DNA of 64,000 nt from Candidatus Levyibacteriota bacterium (GCA_030651475.1 JAUSEW010000029.1:21777-85776); one strand, 5' to 3'. Positions 37,069 through 48,224 are shown, counted from the first letter of the stretch. Notes: a model not told the origin generated them from the letters alone. Numbers and translations: made by a program.

Positions 37069-38145
37069 ATGGGCAGGACACCTAATTCTCAAAAATCTAC
37101 AGCTTCAATTAGTAATTCAGAATCTTCACATAAATTAGATGCAGTTAAGCTCGCCATGGAGCAAATAGAAAAACAGTACGGAAGGGGCTCTATAATGCGG
37201 TTTGGCGAAGCTGGCCAGAAGCTGGATATCTCTGTCATCTCAACAGGGTGTCTTCCCGTAGACTTGGCGCTTGGAGTAGGCGGAGTGCCAAGAGGAAGAA
37301 TTATAGAAGTCTTTGGTCCCGAAGCCTCGGGAAAAACCACGATTTGTTTATCAATCATCGCCCAAGCCCAGAAGCATGGAGGAATTGCAGCCTTTATAGA
37401 TGCGGAGCACGCTTTGGATCCTCTGTGGGCAAGAACCATTGGGGTTAAGCTGGATGAACTTCTTATTTCCCAGCCGGATACAGGAGAACAAGCTTTGGAG
37501 ATCGCAGAAAGTTTGATTCGAAGCGGAGGAGTAGACGTTCTGGTTATAGATTCTGTGGCAGCGTTAGTTCCTCGAGCGGAAATAGAAGGAGAAATGGGAG
37601 ATTCCATGATGGGGCTTCACGCAAGACTTATGTCGCAAGCTTTGAGAAAACTTACAGGGGCTATTTCTAAATCCAAGACAATAGCAATTTTTACCAACCA
37701 GCTAAGGCAAAAAATAGGAGTTATGTTCGGAAACCCTGAAACCACAACCGGAGGTTTGGCGCTTAAGTTTTACTCTTCCGTTAGGATGGATGTTCGCAAA
37801 ATAGAAACGATAAAAGATGGAGATAGGGCTATCGGCTCAAGACATAGAGTAAAAATAGTTAAGAATAAGGTGGCTACGCCTTTTAGGATTGCAGAATTTG
37901 ACGTGATGGCTGATACGGGAATTTCCAGAGAGGGAGGAATAGTAGATGTAGGTGTTGAGATGGGAATTATTCAAAAGTCAGGAGCATTTTTCAGATTTGG
38001 GGAATTAATGCTTGGCCAAGGTAAGGAAGCAGCGAAAATATTTCTTAAGGAAAAGCCTGATATTGCTAAAAAGATTGTGGATGAGATTTTGAAAAAAAGC
38101 AAAACCTCCGGCACCCCTGTTGAAGTAGGAATTGAAGAGAAATAG
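37069..38145 (+). CDS. recA: recombinase RecA
   Basis: 358 aa; GPEASGKTT Walker [18 protein letters not shown]. Confidence 0.95.
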
Positions 38146-38151
38146 ATAATC

Positions 38152-38622
38152 ATGGAGGAGTTTGAGAAGTTTTACAATAAGGCGCTGAAGTTCTTATCCT
38201 ATCGTCCTCGATCGGAAAAAGAAATCCGCGATAAATTATTTCAAAAAAAGACGCCTCAAGATTTAATTGAAAAAATTGTTTCAAAGCTTAAAGAACAGAA
38301 GTTTATTAATGATGAAGAATTTGCGAAATTGTGGATTGAAAGCAGAAATAGATCTAAGCCACGCAGTTTACGTTTGATTAAATTAGAATTAAAGCGAAAA
38401 GGAATCGAAGGAGACATTATTGACAAAATGACTAATGATGAAGGATTAATGATTAAAGATTTGGAATCGGCTAAAAAGCTTGTTGCAAAGAGAATGGCAA
38501 GATTGAAGGGTTTGGATAGGCAAAAGATTTATGAAAAACTGGGGAGGTTTTTGGCTTCAAAGGGATTTGGTTGGGATACGATAAAACAGGTGATTGACGA
38601 AGTATTAAGCGAAGGAGTATAA
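38152..38622 (+). CDS. recX: regulatory protein RecX
   Basis: 156 aa; helical repeat pattern typical of RecX; directly downstream of recA. Confidence 0.75.
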   Translation: MEEFEKFYNKALKFLSYRPRSEKEIRDKLFQKKTPQDLIEKIVSKLKEQKFINDEEFAKLWIESRNRSKPRSLRLIKLELKRKGIEGDIIDKMTNDEGLMIKDLESAKKLVAKRMARLKGLDRQKIYEKLGRFLASKGFGWDTIKQVIDEVLSEGV

Positions 38623-41944: not shown

Positions 41945-42634
41945 ATGGCTGAAAAACAAACTGCTTTAAGTAATGAAAACAGGGATTCTTTTGAAGCAAG
42001 ACTGTTCGGATGCTTCTCGCCTCTTGATACGAAAAATATAATGTATGCATATGATGTTGCAAAAATTGCTCATGGTCAAAAATTACAAAAAAGAGATAGC
42101 GGTGAACGATATTTTGAACATCCCAGAGCTGTTGCCTTGATTTTGCTTGATGAGTGTGAGATAAAAGACGCAGCAATTATAAAAGGCGCTCTAATACATG
42201 ACGTATTAGAAGACACGGGATTTTTTGGAAATGCTCATTACTTAACTTACCAGCAATTAATCGAGGAAGCAGAGTATAGAATTAGTTTGTTATTTGGAGA
42301 GGAGACAGCGGGAATTGTAATAGATGTATCGAAACCAAATGGTACAGACATGGTGGGAAAAACAGCAGGTGAAATAGACGACATGTATCATAGAAATCTT
42401 GAAAACGCTCCGGCAAAGAGTTTGTTGGTAAAGATGGCAGATGTTCTACATAATAATCGTACACTTCTATCTACAACACTTAAGAAACAACACCATCGGG
42501 TGGAGGAGACAGAAGGAGTCTATTTAGACATGTTTAAAAGAAAAGTTCTTCCAGAATATCCAAATGAAGGAGGCTATCTTTTGGATCAAATAAAGTTAGC
42601 CGTAAATAGAACTCGTTTAAGTTGGCGAAAATAG
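41945..42634 (+). CDS. HD-domain (p)ppGpp hydrolase, small alarmone hydrolase-like
   Basis: 229 aa; RelA/SpoT HD signature EHPRAVA...ALIHDVLEDT. Confidence 0.65.
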   Translation: MAEKQTALSNENRDSFEARLFGCFSPLDTKNIMYAYDVAKIAHGQKLQKRDSGERYFEHPRAVALILLDECEIKDAAIIKGALIHDVLEDTGFFGNAHYLTYQQLIEEAEYRISLLFGEETAGIVIDVSKPNGTDMVGKTAGEIDDMYHRNLENAPAKSLLVKMADVLHNNRTLLSTTLKKQHHRVEETEGVYLDMFKRKVLPEYPNEGGYLLDQIKLAVNRTRLSWRK

Positions 42635-42640
42635 CTTTAG

Positions 42641-45508
42641 TTAATTTGTACTGCAAAGCATTTTGTATTCGCAAGTTACGCAGAGCATATTTTTACTGCA
42701 TTTGAAATCACTTTTTTCAATTTCTGCAATTTTTTGAATTAGTTCGTTTTCTAATTTATCCAAATCTTCCTGCTTGAAGTTCATAGATTTTTTGGTATTT
42801 CCCTCAAGGAAATGAAGCGTTAGGGCTATATCTTTGGGATTTCGATTAAGTACGCTATCTTTAATCCGTGTTGCTGCCAGGGCATACATGGCAAGCTGAA
42901 GTTCGTGAGCCTCATGTGCTTTGGGATTATCTTGCCCTGTTTTATAATCAATAATTTCGATACCGTTACCTTTTTTGTCTATTCTATCGATTTTACCAAA
43001 AACTTTGACGCCATTCTTAAGCATAAAATTAAATGGCATTTCAAGTCCAAGAATTTTGGTTTTTGGGTTATACTCTTTTTTATAAAATTCTTCCAGTATT
43101 GCAATCGCTTGGGTGAATCTTTCTTCTTCATGTTTTTTATTTGTGTATCCTTCACTAATCCATTCGGTTTTAAGTATATTCAGTAAATCTTTTAGTGATT
43201 GGGTTTTCCCATCTTGAATATTTTTGTAAAAATTGTACAAAGTGCTGTGAATAGAAATACCAAAACTCTGGACACCGGCAATGGGAGTTGGGATGTTGAA
43301 AATAACCTTTGCTTTATAGTGAAGGGGGCAGATATCAAAACTCTGAAGATTTGAATATGTAATGTAGGAGACTTTATATGATTGTTTTGTCTCTTTGACT
43401 TCTTCTTTCTCCTCATAGTCGGATAGTATTTCCGTAAGGGATAGCTGTTGGGTTTGATTTTTTATTTCCTCTTGTTCCTGCAATTTTGGAAGCGCTTCGT
43501 AAATAAAAGGGGAAAGTTTTTTTGTCCGTTTAGCAGTTGCATAAAAATTAGCTGCTGTAAAATATAATCTTTCTTTTGCCCGCGTCATGCCAACATAAAA
43601 AAGTCTTCTTTCTTCTTCCAGATGAAAATCACTATTAGGATCTATTTTTTCCTTAATAATTCCCAGAGGCAGTGGGATTTTTTCATTTCTTTCACGCGAC
43701 GGGAAACGGTCGGATACAAGATTTACCAAGAATACAACCTTAAATTCAAGTCCTTTTGAAGAATGAACGGTCAAAATATTAACTGCATTTCTGTCTTTCC
43801 TGTCAATGTCCGCTGCTTGAGGACTGTCTCCCATTTGAAGCATGAGATTTAACCATTCGACGATGGTAAATATGTTAGCGTCATGACGTTCTGTCTCAAA
43901 ACTTTTTATTCTGTCAAAAAACTTTGCAATATTCTGGACTCTTCGTTCTTCTTTGACTGAATCTGTAGAATTAAGAGTCTCAAATAATCTTGAATCAAGC
44001 AGGAAATAATAGAGAATTTGTCCGGCTGTTTCTTTTTTGCTTTTCTCCAGATGTCTTTCTGCCATTTTTCTAAAATTTGTTAATTTTTCTTGCGTTTCAG
44101 GTTTTAGGAAAGATTGTTCGACATTGAAAAGTGCTTCAAAAAGAGTAAGATTTCTTTTTTTGGCAAAATTAAGTAAATAATTCAGTTCAATGTAGGGGAT
44201 GCTAAATATATCCATCGAAAGAACTCTGAAAAGAGATACTGAATCTGAAAGATTTGTCAGGAACATAAGATAAGCAATTAAGTCTTTTATTTCTTCCTGC
44301 TGGAAAAGATATCCGGGGCCTAAAAATTGAAAGGGGATTCTGTGTCTTTGTAAAGAAGCTGTAATTATACTTGCATGATTATTGGCTCTTACCAAAATCG
44401 CGACATCTTTATATTCATATTTGCTTTGAGTTAGCTCTTGGATTTTCTTGGCAATGGTATCTGCTTCGTCTTCCGATCGATTTTCATGAATGAATTCGAC
44501 TTCTTGTTTGTGTGCCTTGGAATTACTTTTGAGTTTTTTATCAATACCCTCAACAACTTCTAGTCGGTTGGGATTATTGTGTTGGATAAGTCGATACGCT
44601 GCATCCAAAATAGTCTGGATAGATCTATAATTATTATTCAAAGTGACAGTTTTGGCAGTTGGGAAATTTTTTTTAAATTGCAAAACATTGGAAACCGCAG
44701 CGCCTCTAAATCTGTATATTGATTGATCGTCATCAGCAACTACGGCAATATTTTTATCTTTTCCGGCGAGGGCAATTGCCAACTCATTTTGCGCATAATT
44801 GGTATCCTGAAATTCATCAACCAGAATAGATTTGAATTGATTTTGATATTTTTTCAGAATATTCTTTCTTGTCCGGAATAGCAGTAGGGTATTTGAAATA
44901 AGATCTGAAAAATCCATAACTGATTCTTTTATTTTCAATTCTTCATATTTTTTATAAGCATTTGCCAATTCCAAATATTGATCTTTTTCCTCTATCGATT
45001 TTTGAGTTTTCGCCCAATTAAGATATTCACCGGGTGATACATCTTCATCCTTAAGTCTTGAGAAATGCGAAAGCAGAGCATCCAGAAATTTTGTAGGATT
45101 TCCAAGAGGTCTAAAAAGTTTAAGATCCATATTGAAAATGTTTTTTCGGAGCAAAAGCATGGATTCTGCTTCCGAAATCAATTTATATCCTGGATCCAGT
45201 CCTATGGTATGCGCGTCGTCTCGAAGAATTCTGTCACAAAAACCATGAAAGGTCATAATCCACATTTGGGTATAACCATACGGCATTGCGATATCTACGC
45301 GTTCTTCCATTTCGCGGGCTGCCTTATCCGTAAAAGTTAGGGCTAGAATTTGGGAGGGAGGAATATTTTTTTCCAAAACTAAGTATTTTATTCTTTCTGT
45401 TATGACAGTTGTTTTGCCTGTTCCTGCGCCTGCAATAATGAGAAGCGGTCCGTTTCCATGGCGTACTGCTTCAAGCTGTTCCTTATTGAGGATTTTTTTG
45501 TCTTCCAT
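42641..45508 (-). CDS. UvrD/PcrA-family helicase fused to C-terminal PD-(D/E)xK nuclease with Cas4/AddB-like cysteines
   Basis: 955 aa; Walker A AGAGTGKT, helicase motifs; C-terminal EIIDYKTG and C...CxxCx5C cluster. Confidence 0.8.
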   Translation of the reverse strand: MEDKKILNKEQLEAVRHGNGPLLIIAGAGTGKTTVITERIKYLVLEKNIPPSQILALTFTDKAAREMEERVDIAMPYGYTQMWIMTFHGFCDRILRDDAHTIGLDPGYKLISEAESMLLLRKNIFNMDLKLFRPLGNPTKFLDALLSHFSRLKDEDVSPGEYLNWAKTQKSIEEKDQYLELANAYKKYEELKIKESVMDFSDLISNTLLLFRTRKNILKKYQNQFKSILVDEFQDTNYAQNELAIALAGKDKNIAVVADDDQSIYRFRGAAVSNVLQFKKNFPTAKTVTLNNNYRSIQTILDAAYRLIQHNNPNRLEVVEGIDKKLKSNSKAHKQEVEFIHENRSEDEADTIAKKIQELTQSKYEYKDVAILVRANNHASIITASLQRHRIPFQFLGPGYLFQQEEIKDLIAYLMFLTNLSDSVSLFRVLSMDIFSIPYIELNYLLNFAKKRNLTLFEALFNVEQSFLKPETQEKLTNFRKMAERHLEKSKKETAGQILYYFLLDSRLFETLNSTDSVKEERRVQNIAKFFDRIKSFETERHDANIFTIVEWLNLMLQMGDSPQAADIDRKDRNAVNILTVHSSKGLEFKVVFLVNLVSDRFPSRERNEKIPLPLGIIKEKIDPNSDFHLEEERRLFYVGMTRAKERLYFTAANFYATAKRTKKLSPFIYEALPKLQEQEEIKNQTQQLSLTEILSDYEEKEEVKETKQSYKVSYITYSNLQSFDICPLHYKAKVIFNIPTPIAGVQSFGISIHSTLYNFYKNIQDGKTQSLKDLLNILKTEWISEGYTNKKHEEERFTQAIAILEEFYKKEYNPKTKILGLEMPFNFMLKNGVKVFGKIDRIDKKGNGIEIIDYKTGQDNPKAHEAHELQLAMYALAATRIKDSVLNRNPKDIALTLHFLEGNTKKSMNFKQEDLDKLENELIQKIAEIEKSDFKCSKNMLCVTCEYKMLCSTN

Positions 45509-45581
45509 GGAGATATTTTACCACACCCAAAACACCTTAATTAAAGGAAACTTACTGTCATTTTCGTAGCTTACTACATTC

Positions 45582-46001
45582 CTACTCAACAACTATTGTT
45601 CCCGTCTGACTTGGATTTAGATGGTCATGATAGCTGTATGTTCCAGGTTTATCAAACCCAAGCTGCACGGATGATCCGTCACCAAACTCCCCTAAATTAA
45701 GAGGAGGATAGGCAAGATGAGTTGGATGTACTGCTGAATTCACAGTAACTGTCGTTCCACTTTTATTCATCCAAACAACTTTTGTCCCGGCCTTAATTGT
45801 TAAAGTTTGAGGTACGAATCCGGAAGTCGTTACAGTAACGATAGCCTCGCTTTGCTTCTGTTCTTGAGCAGGAGAAGTTGTTACTTGTTGACTTTGAGAT
45901 CCTTGTTGAACTGGAGCTTGGTTCGAGCTCTTTTTAGCTCCAAATATAAATACTCCGGCAATTATAGCAATAGCGATTATGACAATTAAAAATTTACCCA
46001 T
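45582..46001 (-). CDS. membrane-anchored cupredoxin-like protein (Cys ligand replaced by Asp)
   Basis: 139 aa; C-terminal PGTYSYHDHLNP..GTIVVE resembles plastocyanin/pseudoazurin copper site but without Cys. Confidence 0.4.
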   Translation of the reverse strand: MGKFLIVIIAIAIIAGVFIFGAKKSSNQAPVQQGSQSQQVTTSPAQEQKQSEAIVTVTTSGFVPQTLTIKAGTKVVWMNKSGTTVTVNSAVHPTHLAYPPLNLGEFGDGSSVQLGFDKPGTYSYHDHLNPSQTGTIVVE

Positions 46002-46042
46002 TTCGTTTTATTCACCTCCCTTATTCCATAAGTGACTTTTTC

Positions 46043-47032
46043 TTAATCTTCTATTTCTTTTACGGCGACTTCCTCAAGGCTTTTAGTTGAATTAAGTTTT
46101 TGGCCAAGCTGTCCGAACACATTGCTGACATTGGAAAACTGTCCCGAAGCATTATTGATATGTCTGCCCAAGATTTCCATATTCCCCGAAACTTTTTCGT
46201 AGTCACCCTGCATAGCTCTTAACATTTTGAAAACCTCACGGGAACGTCCTTCAATTTTCTTCCCTTCAAATGAAAGAAGTATTGTTTGAAGATGGGCATA
46301 AAGAGTACTTGGGGATACAACGTAGACTCTGGATCTTTTCGCAAAATCCATAACCTCGGTTATATTGACTAGCTCATAGTATACGGACTCGCTTGGTACG
46401 TACATTAACGCAAAATCCATTGTACCTTCTTCAGGAAGAATATATTTCCTAGCGATATCTGTTATATGTTTTTTTACATCCCTAATAAATTCTTTTTGGA
46501 TATCATTTTTTTCTTTTTCACTTTCTGCTTTGGTCATTTTCTGGAAATTCTCCATGGGGAATTTTGAGTCTATGGGCAAAATGCCCGCATCGGTTTTTAT
46601 CGCCGCATCAACTCTTTGTCCTGATTTAAATTGATATTGCAAATTGAAACTATTTTTAGGAAACATCTGCGATATAAGGTCTTTAAGAACCTGTTCTCCG
46701 ATATTTCCTCGTAGTTTCGGACTTTTAAGAAAATCCTGAAGTTCCCGCATGCCTCTTCCGATTTCACTCATCTCCCCAACTTCTTTGCCAACATCTCTAA
46801 TAACAGCAGCTGCCTTGTCAAGCCGTTCATTTAATTGTTTTGAATTTTCCTGAAGGGTTTTTACCATGTTAGTTGAAGATGAGTTAATAGAGCCCTGCAT
46901 GCTTTTTAGCCATTCAAGCAGGGTATCGTCAGGTTTATTGCTGGAAGATGATAGCTTTTTGTTGATGATAAAAATAATAATACCAAAGCCTACAAATACG
47001 AGAACTAGAATAAGGATAATTTGGATATTCAT
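46043..47032 (-). CDS. rmuC: DNA recombination protein RmuC
   Basis: 329 aa; N-terminal TM, coiled-coil, C-terminal DFALMYVPSESVYYE region typical of RmuC. Confidence 0.65.
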   Translation of the reverse strand: MNIQIILILVLVFVGFGIIIFIINKKLSSSSNKPDDTLLEWLKSMQGSINSSSTNMVKTLQENSKQLNERLDKAAAVIRDVGKEVGEMSEIGRGMRELQDFLKSPKLRGNIGEQVLKDLISQMFPKNSFNLQYQFKSGQRVDAAIKTDAGILPIDSKFPMENFQKMTKAESEKEKNDIQKEFIRDVKKHITDIARKYILPEEGTMDFALMYVPSESVYYELVNITEVMDFAKRSRVYVVSPSTLYAHLQTILLSFEGKKIEGRSREVFKMLRAMQGDYEKVSGNMEILGRHINNASGQFSNVSNVFGQLGQKLNSTKSLEEVAVKEIED

Positions 47033-47106
47033 TATATTAATAACTATTTCTACTATACACCATTGACAAAGTTTTTTTAATAGTTTAGGATATTTATTGT
47101 TCTTTT

Positions 47107-47397
47107 ATGTCAAATTTTTCTACGTCCAGAACTATAATCTTTGCAGTATTTGCAATTGCGTTACTAATTGTTGCCTTTGTATTAGTTTTTAATAAAAAAG
47201 GAATACAAGTTACGAGCCAATTGCTATCGCCTATAAGCCAAGTTTCTCCAACAGTAGTGAATGTGACTTCCCAAAATGCGGATAAGGTGGTGGAAGATAC
47301 AGACAAAGCAATACAAGAATCTACTAGTCAATTAGACAGTGATCTTAATTCTTTGGATAACATAGATCAAACACAGGATAGTACAGCCGGATTATGA
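47107..47397 (+). CDS. small membrane-anchored hypothetical protein
   Basis: 96 aa; N-terminal TM. Confidence 0.3.
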   Translation: MSNFSTSRTIIFAVFAIALLIVAFVLVFNKKGIQVTSQLLSPISQVSPTVVNVTSQNADKVVEDTDKAIQESTSQLDSDLNSLDNIDQTQDSTAGL

Positions 47398-48224
47398 AAA
47401 AATATATTATTAGCGCTTCATTATTACTATTAGTACTTTTGGCAGCTCAATCTGCTTTAGCAAAATCTGCTGATGGGGAAGGTAATGTCGTGAAGGATGC
47501 AAATAACTTGCTTAGGCAAGCGCAGAATACGATAAATAATTCAAGTAAAGCCGCTGTTAGAGAGCAGGAGCAGATTATCAGATTAAAACAGCAGGGAGAC
47601 AAAATGGTTACGCAAAGGATAGCATCTCTAAATATCCTTATTGCTCGTATAAACAACGATAAACGTCTTACAAGCGATGAAAAGACAGCATTATCGTCAG
47701 ATGTGCAGAATGCTATAAGCGGTTTAACTGCTCTTAAGACAAAAATTGACGCGGATACAACAGTTGGAGATTTAAAGGCAGACATAAAACAAATTGCTAC
47801 AAACTATAAAGTTTATGAAGTGCTTGAGCCCAAGATGAGGATTTTAGTTGTTATAGATAATCTTCAGGATATTTCTAATAGACTTAGTCGGCTTTCACCA
47901 AAGCTGCAAGTCTTTATTGATGATCTTAAAGGTCAAAATAAAAATGTTTCAGATCTCCCGATTTTACTTAACGATATTAATTCCAACCTTTCGGCAATCA
48001 ATACCAAATTGTCTGCGGATAAAATTGCAATTATGAATATTAGCGTAAATACAGTTAATGCTAAGGATGCTTTCGTTTCAGTACGAAAAGACTTGGCGCA
48101 AGTTCGGGCTGATTTCGCCAAAATACGCCACGATATAGCGTTGATGAGAGAAAACCTTAAGGGAGTTCTTAAAAATACAACTGCCGGTCCCTCATTAGCT
48201 CCAAGCGCAGTACCCCTCAACTAA
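47394..48224 (+). CDS. secreted helical/coiled-coil hypothetical protein
   Basis: 276 aa; signal peptide MKKYIISASLLLLVLLAAQSALA. Confidence 0.4.
   Translation: MKKYIISASLLLLVLLAAQSALAKSADGEGNVVKDANNLLRQAQNTINNSSKAAVREQEQIIRLKQQGDKMVTQRIASLNILIARINNDKRLTSDEKTALSSDVQNAISGLTALKTKIDADTTVGDLKADIKQIATNYKVYEVLEPKMRILVVIDNLQDISNRLSRLSPKLQVFIDDLKGQNKNVSDLPILLNDINSNLSAINTKLSADKIAIMNISVNTVNAKDAFVSVRKDLAQVRADFAKIRHDIALMRENLKGVLKNTTAGPSLAPSAVPLN

Follow-up and report, generated by a model that had tools for sequence, protein, structure and literature searches.

A UvrD-Cas4-like helicase-nuclease encoded next to rmuC in Patescibacteria and its proposed role in recombinational repair

Introduction

Several described systems combine a superfamily 1 (SF1) helicase with a nuclease. 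In AddAB, AddA consists of a motor and a nuclease, and AddB of an inactive helicase and an Fe-S nuclease. The Dna2 motor belongs to SF1B and moves in the 5'->3' direction. The 5' strand is threaded through, and cut by, the AdnA nuclease of AdnAB, whose Fe-S subdomain is located at the fork (PMC8789073). UvrD-Cas4-like fusions form the largest branch of the PF12705 Cas4-like proteins and were described in the context of type III restriction-modification (RM) genes, of Dcm/Vsr, or as stand-alone genes; from the RM and Dcm/Vsr contexts, a defence or ancillary role was inferred for the family (Hudaiberdiev et al. 2017, PMC5704561). We found no biochemically characterised member of this fusion family in the literature searched. 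Nuclease activity of an RmuC domain was demonstrated in ShdA (PMC10270631).

Here we analyse a helicase-nuclease gene located near rmuC in a 64,000-nt stretch (the window) from Candidatus Levyibacteriota bacterium (GCA_030651475.1 JAUSEW010000029.1:21777-85776).

Results and Discussion

A PcrA/UvrD-like motor joined to an AdnA-like nuclease

A preliminary description, made from the sequence, had proposed a 955-amino-acid (aa) protein with a UvrD helicase and a C-terminal nuclease. Translation yielded an ORF of exactly this extent (Table 1). Its Pfam matches were UvrD-helicase (PF00580; residues 7-283, 1.3e-78), UvrD_C (PF13361; residues 288-653, 3.5e-59), PDDEXK_1 (PF12705; residues 716-952, 8.7e-36) and Cas_Cas4 (residues 838-953, 30.5 bits vs a gathering score of 22.7), so that all domains suggested for a search were found. 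PF00580, PF13361 and PF12705 in one ORF define a UvrD-Cas4-like fusion, and the protein belongs to this family: a UvrD-like SF1 helicase is followed by a four-cysteine Cas4-like PD-(D/E)xK domain. As judged from its sequence, the gene product is a single chain of a UvrD/PcrA-type SF1A motor and a C-terminal PD-(D/E)xK nuclease. The architecture is not novel, since it has been known from the 2017 computational description, and the protein itself already has a 100% identical database entry, named 'ATP-dependent DNA helicase [Candidatus Levybacteria bacterium]'. Unlike the described contexts, however, the patescibacterial gene lies in a conserved housekeeping neighbourhood with rmuC.

Table 1. 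Features of the helicase-nuclease locus (window coordinates; res, residues of the encoded protein)
Feature	Position in protein	Coordinates	Strand	Evidence
Helicase-nuclease gene (955 aa + stop)		42641..45508	(-)	ORF, translation, Pfam and NCBIfam
SF1A UvrD/PcrA-type helicase core	res 1-655	43544..45508	(-)	Pfam UvrD-helicase and UvrD_C, PDB matches
Q motif	Q11
Walker A, GAGTGKT	res 27-33
DEFQD	res 231-235
Motif III, DDDQSIYRFRGA	res 259-270
Motif V	res 580-589
Motif VI, VGMTRA	res 639-644
Predicted-disordered, sequence-variable linker	res 656-715	43364..43543	(-)	AF2 pLDDT, alignment
Short linear motif QLSLTEIL	res 688-695	43424..43447	(-)	Alignment of homologs
PD-(D/E)xK nuclease domain, Cas4/AdnA/AddB Fe-S class	res 716-955	42644..43363	(-)
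C727 codon, first predicted Fe-S ligand (F-x-x-C-P-L-x-Y)	C727	43328..43330	(-)	Invariant in alignments
Codons of the C-terminal three predicted Fe-S ligands	C943-x2-C946-x5-C952	42653..42682	(-)	Invariant
Cupredoxin-like protein, 139 aa		45582..46001	(-)	PF13473 1.4e-9
RmuC, 329 aa		46043..47032	(-)	PF02646 2.9e-54
recA-recX		37069..38622	(+)	Pfam RecA 6.4e-130, RecX domains

All SF1A motif residues were invariant in 50 aligned representatives; some homologs carry an intein inserted at motif III. The closest solved structure by sequence was PcrA (1pjr, 3e-102), and a full-length AF2 model also had its best structural match in PcrA/UvrD (32% identity). The motor is apparently intact and active and, by homology, would translocate 3'->5'. 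Residues 1-655 thus match PcrA and UvrD best, in sequence as well as in structure, but the C-terminal domain of PcrA/UvrD/Rep proteins is replaced here by the linker and the nuclease. The protein was not assigned to their equivalogs: it scored 488.3 against a cut-off of 911.2 for pcrA and 392.6 against 1144 for uvrD, and its C-terminus consists of linker and nuclease.

For the nuclease, the preliminary description had listed one upstream cysteine (DICPLHY, C727) and a C937-x5-C943-x2-C946-x5-C952 tail. All five cysteines are present, and C727, C943, C946 and C952 were invariant across relatives (C727 in three aligned homolog sets, n = 50, 49 and 15), giving the canonical Cas4/AddB/AdnA pattern C...CxxCx5C. 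C937 did not hold up as part of it: cysteine occupies this position in 34 of the 49 homologs from Microgenomates and in 12 of the 50 representatives of a broader set, which marks it in the alignments as clade-specific and outside the invariant set. Also invariant among the relatives were the catalytic residues H754, E823, D841, D854-x-K856, Q871 and Y875. A profile search against the PDB retrieved AdnA (6.4e-13) with a match that covers the CxxCx5C tail and aligns the cysteines with the AdnA tail CANCPVRSSC; Foldseek likewise returned AdnA (2e-10). By profile and modelled structure, the closest solved relative is AdnA, which in mycobacterial AdnAB is the Fe-S nuclease for the 5' strand. The four cysteines are predicted Fe-S ligands, and the predicted fold and catalytic residues match those of AdnA, AddB, Cas4 and Dna2. 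By homology, the nuclease would act on the 5' strand.

Comparison with AdnAB shows the same H...D...DxK residues and the same CxxCx5C Fe-S tail in AdnA and in the window protein. However, AdnAB pairs two paralogous motor-nuclease subunits in a heterodimer, with the Fe-S nuclease on the inactive, motor-like domain of AdnA. Here there is one gene and, in the loci compared, no partner gene, and the nuclease follows an intact PcrA-like motor in the chain; adjacent paralogous subunits with the Fe-S nuclease on the ATPase-inactive one were not found, Walker A and motifs II, III and VI being intact. With AddAB the protein shares analogous parts, namely an SF1A 3'->5' motor like that of AddA and an Fe-S nuclease of the 5'-strand type like that of AddB, but it is a single chain with a single nuclease and lacks an inactive helicase domain for Chi scanning. 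The proposal that it is AddAB compressed into one chain was therefore overstated: it has one motor and one nuclease, and the helicase is PcrA/UvrD-like (NCBIfam, 488 bits for PcrA-like vs 198 bits for AddA-like).

Further identities were rejected. Scores were far below the cut-offs for AddA (addA_Gpos, 197.6 vs 707.65; addA_alphas, 161 vs 860.75), AddB (addB_alphas, 41.6 vs 486.5), RecB (TIGR00609, 170.9 vs 696.05) and below that for CRISPR Cas4 (TIGR00372, 42.8 vs 65), and neither recC/recD nor cas genes were present among the annotated neighbours. Dna2/Bad was discarded because the domain order is reversed, with the nuclease N-terminal in Dna2 and C-terminal here, and because the helicase matches SF1A PcrA/UvrD. 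Gabija was discarded because the GajB models match as generic UvrD, with no GajA partner or defence matches in the flanks.

Proposed end resection and a putative clamp-binding motif

We consider it rather probable, with modest confidence, that the helicase-nuclease is a recombinational-repair enzyme that works with RmuC in a one-motor, one-nuclease resection. Starting at a DNA end or fork, the motor would move 3'->5' along one strand, and the Fe-S nuclease tethered to it would cut the displaced 5' strand in the manner of AdnA and AddB, leaving a 3' tail for RecA; RmuC perhaps assists. [quoted passage not shown] If so, it would be of use to lineages in which RecBCD has been reported absent.

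The flexible linker of about 60 aa between motor and nuclease stands where canonical PcrA/UvrD has its C-terminal domain. In the full-length AF2 model (pTM 0.53) it is disordered, with pLDDT < 50 for residues 685-707, and the model gives no placement of the helicase relative to the nuclease domain. Linkers of 49 homologs showed no sequence conservation apart from the QLS motif, in which Q688 and L689 were invariant; the family consensus is Q-L-S-[LIF]-[LF]-[DE]-[WYF]. This resembles a beta-clamp-binding motif, for which we required an exposed Q-phi-x-[L/M]-[F/L] or Q-phi-x-[L/M]-x-[F/L]. Among 228 relatives, all with <70% identity, the strict consensus Q[LIVA]x[LM][FL] was present in 66, compared to 4.7 expected from shuffled linkers, and the relaxed consensus in 162. 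The beta clamp possibly recruits the helicase-nuclease through this putative motif.

The motif bears on an alternative, in which the protein is a UvrD/PcrA paralog coupled to replication or excision repair and tethered to the clamp via QLS; it would act like Dna2, unwinding and trimming 5' flaps, reversed forks or gaps rather than resecting double-strand ends. A conserved Q-L-S-[LIF]-[LF] in an otherwise variable, disordered linker, its fit to the clamp-binding consensus QL[S/D]LF and the PcrA/UvrD-like helicase are consistent with this role, and E. coli RecB also binds the clamp. However, the window protein has QLSLTE, in which the fifth residue is T, and falls outside the strict consensus together with the Levybacteria clade (QLSL[T/P/S][E/D]), and end resection is compatible with the same motif. 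We regard this alternative as unlikely, though deserving some weight.

Conserved association with rmuC in a housekeeping neighbourhood

As had been described, the cupredoxin-like gene and rmuC share the orientation of the helicase-nuclease gene. Both lie upstream of it, and the intergenic gaps are 73 and 41 bp. RmuC has an N-terminal transmembrane-like segment, a coiled coil and a PD-(D/E)xK-type domain (D142, D155-x-K157); its acidic/Lys residues and the N-terminal hydrophobic segment were kept in 59 of 59 sequences. To follow the neighbourhood, we used loci from 80 Patescibacteria species, 71 of which were informative for rmuC. In 60 of the 71, rmuC was directly upstream of the helicase-nuclease gene on the same strand, and where genes were called in related loci, the gaps were 6-51 bp. 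Thus, rmuC is a conserved partner gene. The other proposed neighbour proved sporadic: the cupredoxin-like gene, whose Cys-less product is membrane-anchored at its N-terminus, was present in just 13 of the 80 loci. In four Levybacteria loci (L001-L004) it is missing, and rmuC directly adjoins the helicase gene. It is a variable insertion, probably unrelated, and not a functional partner. Promoter and terminator scans gave chance-level results only and thus no support for co-transcription.

The gene order is tsaD-rmuC-(cupredoxin)-helicase-nuclease, with RNase Y-recX-recA convergent. The recA-recX genes, separated by 4.0 kb from the helicase-nuclease gene on its 3' side, are context outside the putative operon. 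Their synteny is retained in the Levybacteria loci, and the arrangement with tsaD, RNase Y and recA-recX has been kept across a phylum-level radiation. Because of this gene context, a role in repair and recombination is most likely in this clade rather than anti-phage defence. A check for defence-island context in relatives had been suggested; across the 80 loci, the neighbours are housekeeping genes.

That RmuC and the helicase-nuclease form an anti-phage or anti-plasmid module degrading invading DNA appears quite improbable to us, although several observations point that way. Other UvrD-Cas4-like fusions adjoin type III RM, Dcm/Vsr and MORC-like genes and are predicted defence components, and a homolog on a Methanomethylovorans plasmid neighbours one helicase-related and one HSP90-family gene. 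RmuC domains occur in Shield and DRT defence systems, membrane-anchored ShdA is a proven defence nuclease, and in PADLOC the helicase matched GajB and RTasHel, and RmuC matched RTasRmuC. These PADLOC matches, however, are generic UvrD/RmuC domain matches, the flanks had none, and no GajA, reverse transcriptase (RT), RM or other defence gene was found among about 20 annotated neighbours. The stable synteny also argues against a defence module, as do the gene's composition, its GC content being similar to that of neighbouring genes, and the plasmid and phage matches, which are only distant (24-26% identity). Shield ShdA resembles the RmuC described here, which is anchored in the membrane and has an RmuC domain with conserved PD-(D/E)xK residues, but ShdA is Pseudomonas-restricted, located in defence islands and without a helicase-nuclease partner, whereas here rmuC is a core gene.

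Processing of imported DNA by the helicase-nuclease and membrane-anchored RmuC, in competence or nucleotide scavenging by auxotrophic CPR, would agree with the anchor-like segment in all 59 RmuC orthologs and with DNA degradation and reduced transformation efficiency by ShdA, but it is purely speculative and seems to us hardly credible; neither the window nor the loci inspected showed linkage to com or pilus genes.

Relatives and paralogy

Among 600 pattern-matching candidate stretches listed from species-representative genomes, at least 474 relatives were confirmed. All 80 loci kept were from Patescibacteria, and at least 120 Levybacteria clusters showed 73-88% identity to the helicase-nuclease. 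It is a chromosomal, vertically inherited and conserved gene of Patescibacteria (CPR); its neighbour-like GC content and the motif III inteins of some homologs also fit a core gene.

The same loci were searched for the adjacent addB or adnA partner that would make this an ordinary AddA. In the 80 loci, we detected no second Cas4/AddB-like nuclease ORF and no adjoining AddB/AdnA-like partner, and the large adjacent ORFs examined were unrelated. An AddA/AdnB-type subunit with its AddB/AdnA partner elsewhere in the genome would have the observed domain order, a UvrD helicase followed by a RecB-family nuclease as in AddA, RecB and AdnA/B, and one fragment was named 'ATP-dependent helicase/DNAse subunit B' by JGI. 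Yet the AddA, AddB and RecB scores given above are far too low, and the Fe-S nuclease is of the AddB/AdnA type on a fully intact motor. The second helicase encoded nearby in relatives is PcrA-like, with intact motifs and no nuclease domain. We judge such a subunit very improbable.

This second helicase, a canonical PcrA-like protein (690 bits), is encoded separately in non-Levybacteria relatives, and the fusion is therefore a specialised paralog. The fusion helicase domains share 33-56% identity among themselves vs 30-34% with the clade's own PcrA. A similarity ranking, with the Hudaiberdiev sequences outside the comparison, would agree with a grouping of the fusion helicases apart from canonical UvrD/PcrA: fusions scored 341-758 bits vs 208-291 bits for CPR PcrA-like helicases.

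Domain structure and conservation

The three minus-strand ORFs of the locus lie exactly where the preliminary description had placed them (see the table), and the 955-aa helicase-nuclease is a real feature. A Pfam search of the product matched UvrD-helicase at residues 7-283 (1.3e-78), UvrD_C at 288-653 (3.5e-59) and PDDEXK_1 at 716-952 (8.7e-36). Cas_Cas4 was matched at residues 838-953 with 30.5 bits (gathering score, 22.7). The domain-level description, a helicase and a nuclease in one polypeptide, was thus correct.

Features of the helicase-nuclease locus in the window
Feature	Position (nt)	Strand	Product or remark
recA-recX	37069-38622		
Helicase-nuclease gene	42641..45508	-	955 aa
Conserved linker motif	43424-43447	-	residues 688-695
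Extended -10-like element	45515-45523	-	TGGTAAAAT
Cupredoxin-like gene	45582-46001	-	139 aa; N-terminal membrane anchor, Gln/Ser-rich spacer, several His (H92, H95, H125, H127)
rmuC	46043..47032	-	329 aa
Two overlapping ORFs	47107-48224	+	96 and 276 aa

Conservation was judged from alignments of 50 full-length representatives, of 49 Microgenomates homologs and of 15 species loci. Throughout these three sets, the SF1A motifs Q11, Walker A GAGTGKT, DEFQD, motif III, motif V and motif VI were unvarying, as were the nuclease residues H754, E823, D841, D854-Y-K856 and Q871..Y875. The same was true for four of the five cysteines (C727, C943, C946 and C952), the spacing of which corresponds to the canonical C...CxxCx5C of Cas4, AddB and AdnA. 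The strings from which an iron-sulfur pattern had been proposed, SFDICPLHY and the tail FKCSKNMLCVTCEYKMLCSTN, are present in the 955-aa product. However, C937, the first Cys of the proposed "C-x5-C", is variable: it is Cys in 34 of 49 close relatives and in only 12 of 50 broad representatives.

Relatives of the motor and the nuclease

The helicase half (residues 1-655) was nearest to PcrA/UvrD/Rep, with 488 bits to TIGR01073 (pcrA), which is under the equivalog cut-off of 911 bits. PDB PcrA 1pjr matched this half at 3e-102, and the full-length model showed 28-33% identity to PcrA/UvrD. AddA (198 bits), RecB (171 bits) and AdnB (8e-38) were much farther away. When the nuclease domain was used as a single sequence, there was no match among PDB sequences. 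With a family profile of the nuclease, the AdnA nuclease domain was the top PDB match (6.4e-13, aligned over its full length with the CxxCx5C tail), followed by the AdnB core, ACE1 (an Argonaute-associated Cas4-family enzyme), Cas4 SSO0001 and AddB. An AlphaFold model of residues 640-955 (75 sequences) had a mean pLDDT of 89, and Foldseek retrieved AdnA first (2e-10), then ACE1, AddB and Dna2. Since profile and fold both rank AdnA first, the nuclease can be assigned to the iron-sulfur class. In AdnAB, the Fe-S-class nuclease threads and cuts the 5' strand, and the Fe-S subdomain is located at the fork (PMC8789073). In AdnA and AddB, such a nuclease is carried on an inactive motor-like domain, whereas here it is joined to an apparently active PcrA-like motor.

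In the full-length AF2 model (pLDDT 80, pTM 0.53), linker residues 685-707 were predicted to be disordered (pLDDT <50). Whole-chain superpositions gave rmsd values of about 30 A for AddA/RecB and 12-13 A for AdnA/AddB, but were set aside as evidence because the interdomain geometry of the model is unreliable at this pTM. To call the protein "AddAB in one chain", as in the preliminary description, is an over-reading: it combines a PcrA-like motor with an AdnA/AddB-like nuclease and has neither a second nuclease nor a Chi-scanning domain.

A conserved motif in the linker

The otherwise unconserved, disordered linker contains one conserved motif, Q688-L689-S690-[LIF]-[LF]-[DE]-[WYF] (alignments A3 and A4), with Q688 and L689 unvarying in 49 homologs. 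Among 228 family members with <70% identity to the query, 162 have Q-phi-x-phi-phi. The strict clamp-binding consensus, Q[LIVA]x[LM][FL], is present in 66 of them, a strong enrichment over the 4.7 matches obtained on average (12 at most) when linkers were shuffled. The linker motif resembles the canonical beta-clamp-binding sequence QL[S/D]LF; PolC uses QLSLF, a tight-binding peptide is QLSLPL, and clamp binding by E. coli RecB was recently reported (bioRxiv 10.1101/2025.08.20.671105). In the window protein and the Levybacteria clade the motif reads QLSL[T/P/S][E/D][I/V]L, which keeps the first four positions and fails the strict consensus (QLSLTE in the window). Because of this degeneracy, the putative beta-clamp recruitment site is proposed as a lead for the family at large and, with less weight, for the window protein.

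A known fusion family

A 100% identical protein is deposited at NCBI as [quoted passage not shown]. The fusion architecture is also already known from computational work: Hudaiberdiev et al. (2017) described a Cas4-like PF12705 domain fused to a UvrD-like helicase (PMC5704561); in their analysis, such fusions form the largest branch of PF12705, and their helicase domains are monophyletic. Our literature search found no biochemical study of any member of the fusion family. Added by the present analysis are the clade-wide housekeeping context, the conserved pairing with rmuC, the canonical PcrA alongside and the conserved linker motif.

Searching with the nuclease domain alone retrieved 3965 cluster representatives at E<=1e-3, 1330 at <=1e-10 and 99 at <=1e-30. 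Full-length representatives were mostly 900-1050 aa long, with the nuclease C-terminal. For 10 distant representatives, the names of cluster members carried no taxonomic information. Given the 1330 representatives at <=1e-10, the family is large as well as uncharacterised, and a single biochemical study would let thousands of genes be annotated. The helicase domain of the query was 33-56% identical to those of other fusion proteins (341-758 bits) and 30-34% identical to PcrA-like helicases of the same bacterial group (208-291 bits). This similarity ranking, which is not a tree, is consistent with a single fusion clade.

Some longer members of 1170-1330 aa (homologs P0118, P0125 and P0194) contain inteins (PF14890/Hint) at helicase motif III, at the position corresponding to residues 263/264 of the window protein. 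Intein insertion is typical of conserved replication and repair genes. An odd architecture was seen in proteins P0123, P0127 and P0134 (1047-1297 aa), which have four to five tandem PDDEXK_1/Cas4-like nuclease domains and no helicase; one cluster mate of such proteins is named "RecB family exonuclease".

Genomic context and pairing with rmuC

The window is a Patescibacteria (Levybacteria) chromosome segment of low GC (about 36%) and uniform composition, and the neighbours of the helicase-nuclease gene are housekeeping genes. One flank harbours recA-recX, RNase Y, an AI-2E transporter and an HD protein; the other contains tsaD, DUF192, cytidylyltransferase, VanW and greA. Flanking ORFs of no assigned family had no meaningful match in PADLOC. 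Levybacteria contigs keep the order tsaD - rmuC - (cupredoxin) - helicase-nuclease, with RNase Y - recX - recA convergent. In the P0292 lineage, the cupredoxin gene is absent and rmuC is separated from the helicase gene by 20 bp.

A one-genome-per-species scan confirmed at least 474 of 600 pattern-matching candidate stretches as relatives. The 80 loci among the matches listed are all from Patescibacteria (Levy-, Woese-, Gottesman-, Roizman-, Shapiro- and Peregrinibacteria, plus Saccharimonadales). Complete Patescibacteria chromosomes with the gene include CP066693.1, CP066686.1, CP066689.1 and OZ246397.1. Where at least 1.5 kb of upstream sequence was available, rmuC preceded the helicase-nuclease gene in the same orientation in 60 of 71 loci, with gaps of 6-51 bp in loci with called genes; it was downstream in two further loci, both from Peregrinibacteria/Peribacteria. 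recA was located within 10 kb in 21 of the 80 loci, essentially the Levybacteria clade. RmuC orthologs retain D142, D155-x-K157 and other acidic residues, and all 59 have an N-terminal hydrophobic segment. In the membrane-bound ShdA, the RmuC domain is a non-specific nuclease (PMC10270631). The conserved link would provide a testable handle on the housekeeping role of RmuC.

The cupredoxin-like gene was present in 13 of the 80 loci, between rmuC and the helicase gene only in some Levybacteria. Its product has no cysteine and therefore cannot be a type-1 blue copper protein. Given this limited occurrence, the extracytoplasmic location and the missing Cys, it was rejected as a functional partner.

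Divergent from rmuC are two overlapping ORFs, the shorter of which encodes a product with a hydrophobic beginning. Neither had a Pfam family, and in PADLOC they gave only weak coiled-coil-type matches (LmuB, 9.5e-5; AriB, 1.2e-3). In one Levybacteria lineage (L005-L007:15696-15974), a small GIY-YIG ORF, absent in the window, lies between RNase Y and recX. At the locus of a distant relative with 32% identity (L089:6584-9554), the called gene spans only UvrD_C and the nuclease. Before it lies a 450-aa ORF for which no family is recorded and which may be the N-terminal part of the helicase, split off or diverged; downstream is a RarA/MgsA-like gene, and rmuC is missing upstream.

Search for a partner subunit

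An adjacent addB or adnA partner, which according to the preliminary description would mark the protein as an ordinary AddA, was looked for and was absent from the 80 loci. In each locus, the nuclease family profile matched only the helicase-nuclease gene, and the sole double match was a split gene. Fourteen loci had large flanking ORFs (>=700 aa); six of these ORFs, among them the directly adjacent ones, were examined, and none was related to helicase-nucleases (RNA polymerase beta', ClpB, glycosyltransferases, an HTH protein and one without Pfam match).

Of the 57 loci that extend at least 5 kb downstream, 27 contain a second UvrD-family gene. It is convergent and lies 2-4 kb downstream, with FemAB-family genes in between. 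In its product, Walker A, motif II and motif III are intact, a nuclease domain is missing, and the score to PcrA (TIGR01073) is 690 bits. On all these grounds the gene was rejected as an AddB/AdnA-like partner and is regarded as the lineage's PcrA. With a separate PcrA nearby, the fusion protein is a specialised paralog, at least outside Levybacteria. In non-Levybacteria Microgenomates (L039-L086; e.g., L046:13137-14960 and L066:12655-14490), the second helicase has about 610 aa. This ORF ends soon after the SRF motif and appears to be without the C-terminal extension of canonical PcrA/UvrD.

Proposed function

Most likely, the helicase-nuclease is a recombination/repair enzyme. Its motor is intact and of the 3'->5' type, its nuclease is predicted to be of the Fe-S class that handles 5' strands, a flexible tether is modelled between the two, rmuC is a conserved partner, and the housekeeping synteny is stable. 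The motor would unwind from a DNA end or fork while the tethered nuclease degrades the displaced 5' strand, leaving a 3' tail for RecA; RmuC could supply a second nuclease. Alternatively, the protein could be a defence component, as contexts of the family elsewhere suggest. The fusions of Hudaiberdiev et al. adjoin type III RM or Dcm/Vsr genes, or stand alone, and were predicted to serve in defence or to be ancillary (PMC5704561). A homolog on a Methanomethylovorans plasmid adjoins a helicase-related gene and an HSP90-family gene, and RmuC domains are employed in Shield and DRT systems. The distribution of the present clade, however, fits defence poorly; plasmid and phage relatives are only remote (24-26% identity).

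A repair role would also be of interest for the DNA-repair inventory of CPR bacteria. Roizmanbacteria are reported to lack RecBCD, and CPR generally may lack it (PMC6509639), which makes it plausible that the helicase-nuclease stands in for RecBCD in resection. If so, it would fill a gap in this inventory. The single-chain combination of an active SF1A motor and an AdnA/AddB-type Fe-S nuclease would then represent the minimal parts for generating a RecA substrate. To our knowledge, all characterised bacterial end-resection machines (RecBCD, AddAB and AdnAB) are multi-subunit. We regard as rather unlikely the full scheme, in which the rmuC/helicase-nuclease pair would be the double-strand-break and fork-processing machine of Patescibacteria, with one PcrA-like motor, one Fe-S 5'-strand nuclease, beta-clamp recruitment via the QLS motif and membrane-anchored RmuC as second cutter, functionally replacing RecBCD/AddAB/AdnAB.

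Expression signals

Scans of 42300-47500 for sigma-70 promoters (20 found, 15.9 expected) and terminators (4 found, 3.5 expected) were at chance level, so operon structure was judged from orientation and spacing only. On this basis, the conserved partner rmuC is probably co-transcribed with the helicase-nuclease gene. Matches to the Gram-positive-type SOS box (CGAACN4GTTCG, <=2 mismatches) were below chance (6 versus 13 expected), with none upstream of rmuC, the helicase-nuclease gene or recA. The extended -10-like element, which was not flagged by the consensus scan, stops 6 nt short of the helicase-nuclease ATG. A Shine-Dalgarno sequence is not evident at this start, whereas the cupredoxin-like gene has one (GGGAGGTG). 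It is possible that the helicase gene is transcribed here from a promoter of its own, into a leaderless mRNA or one with a short leader.
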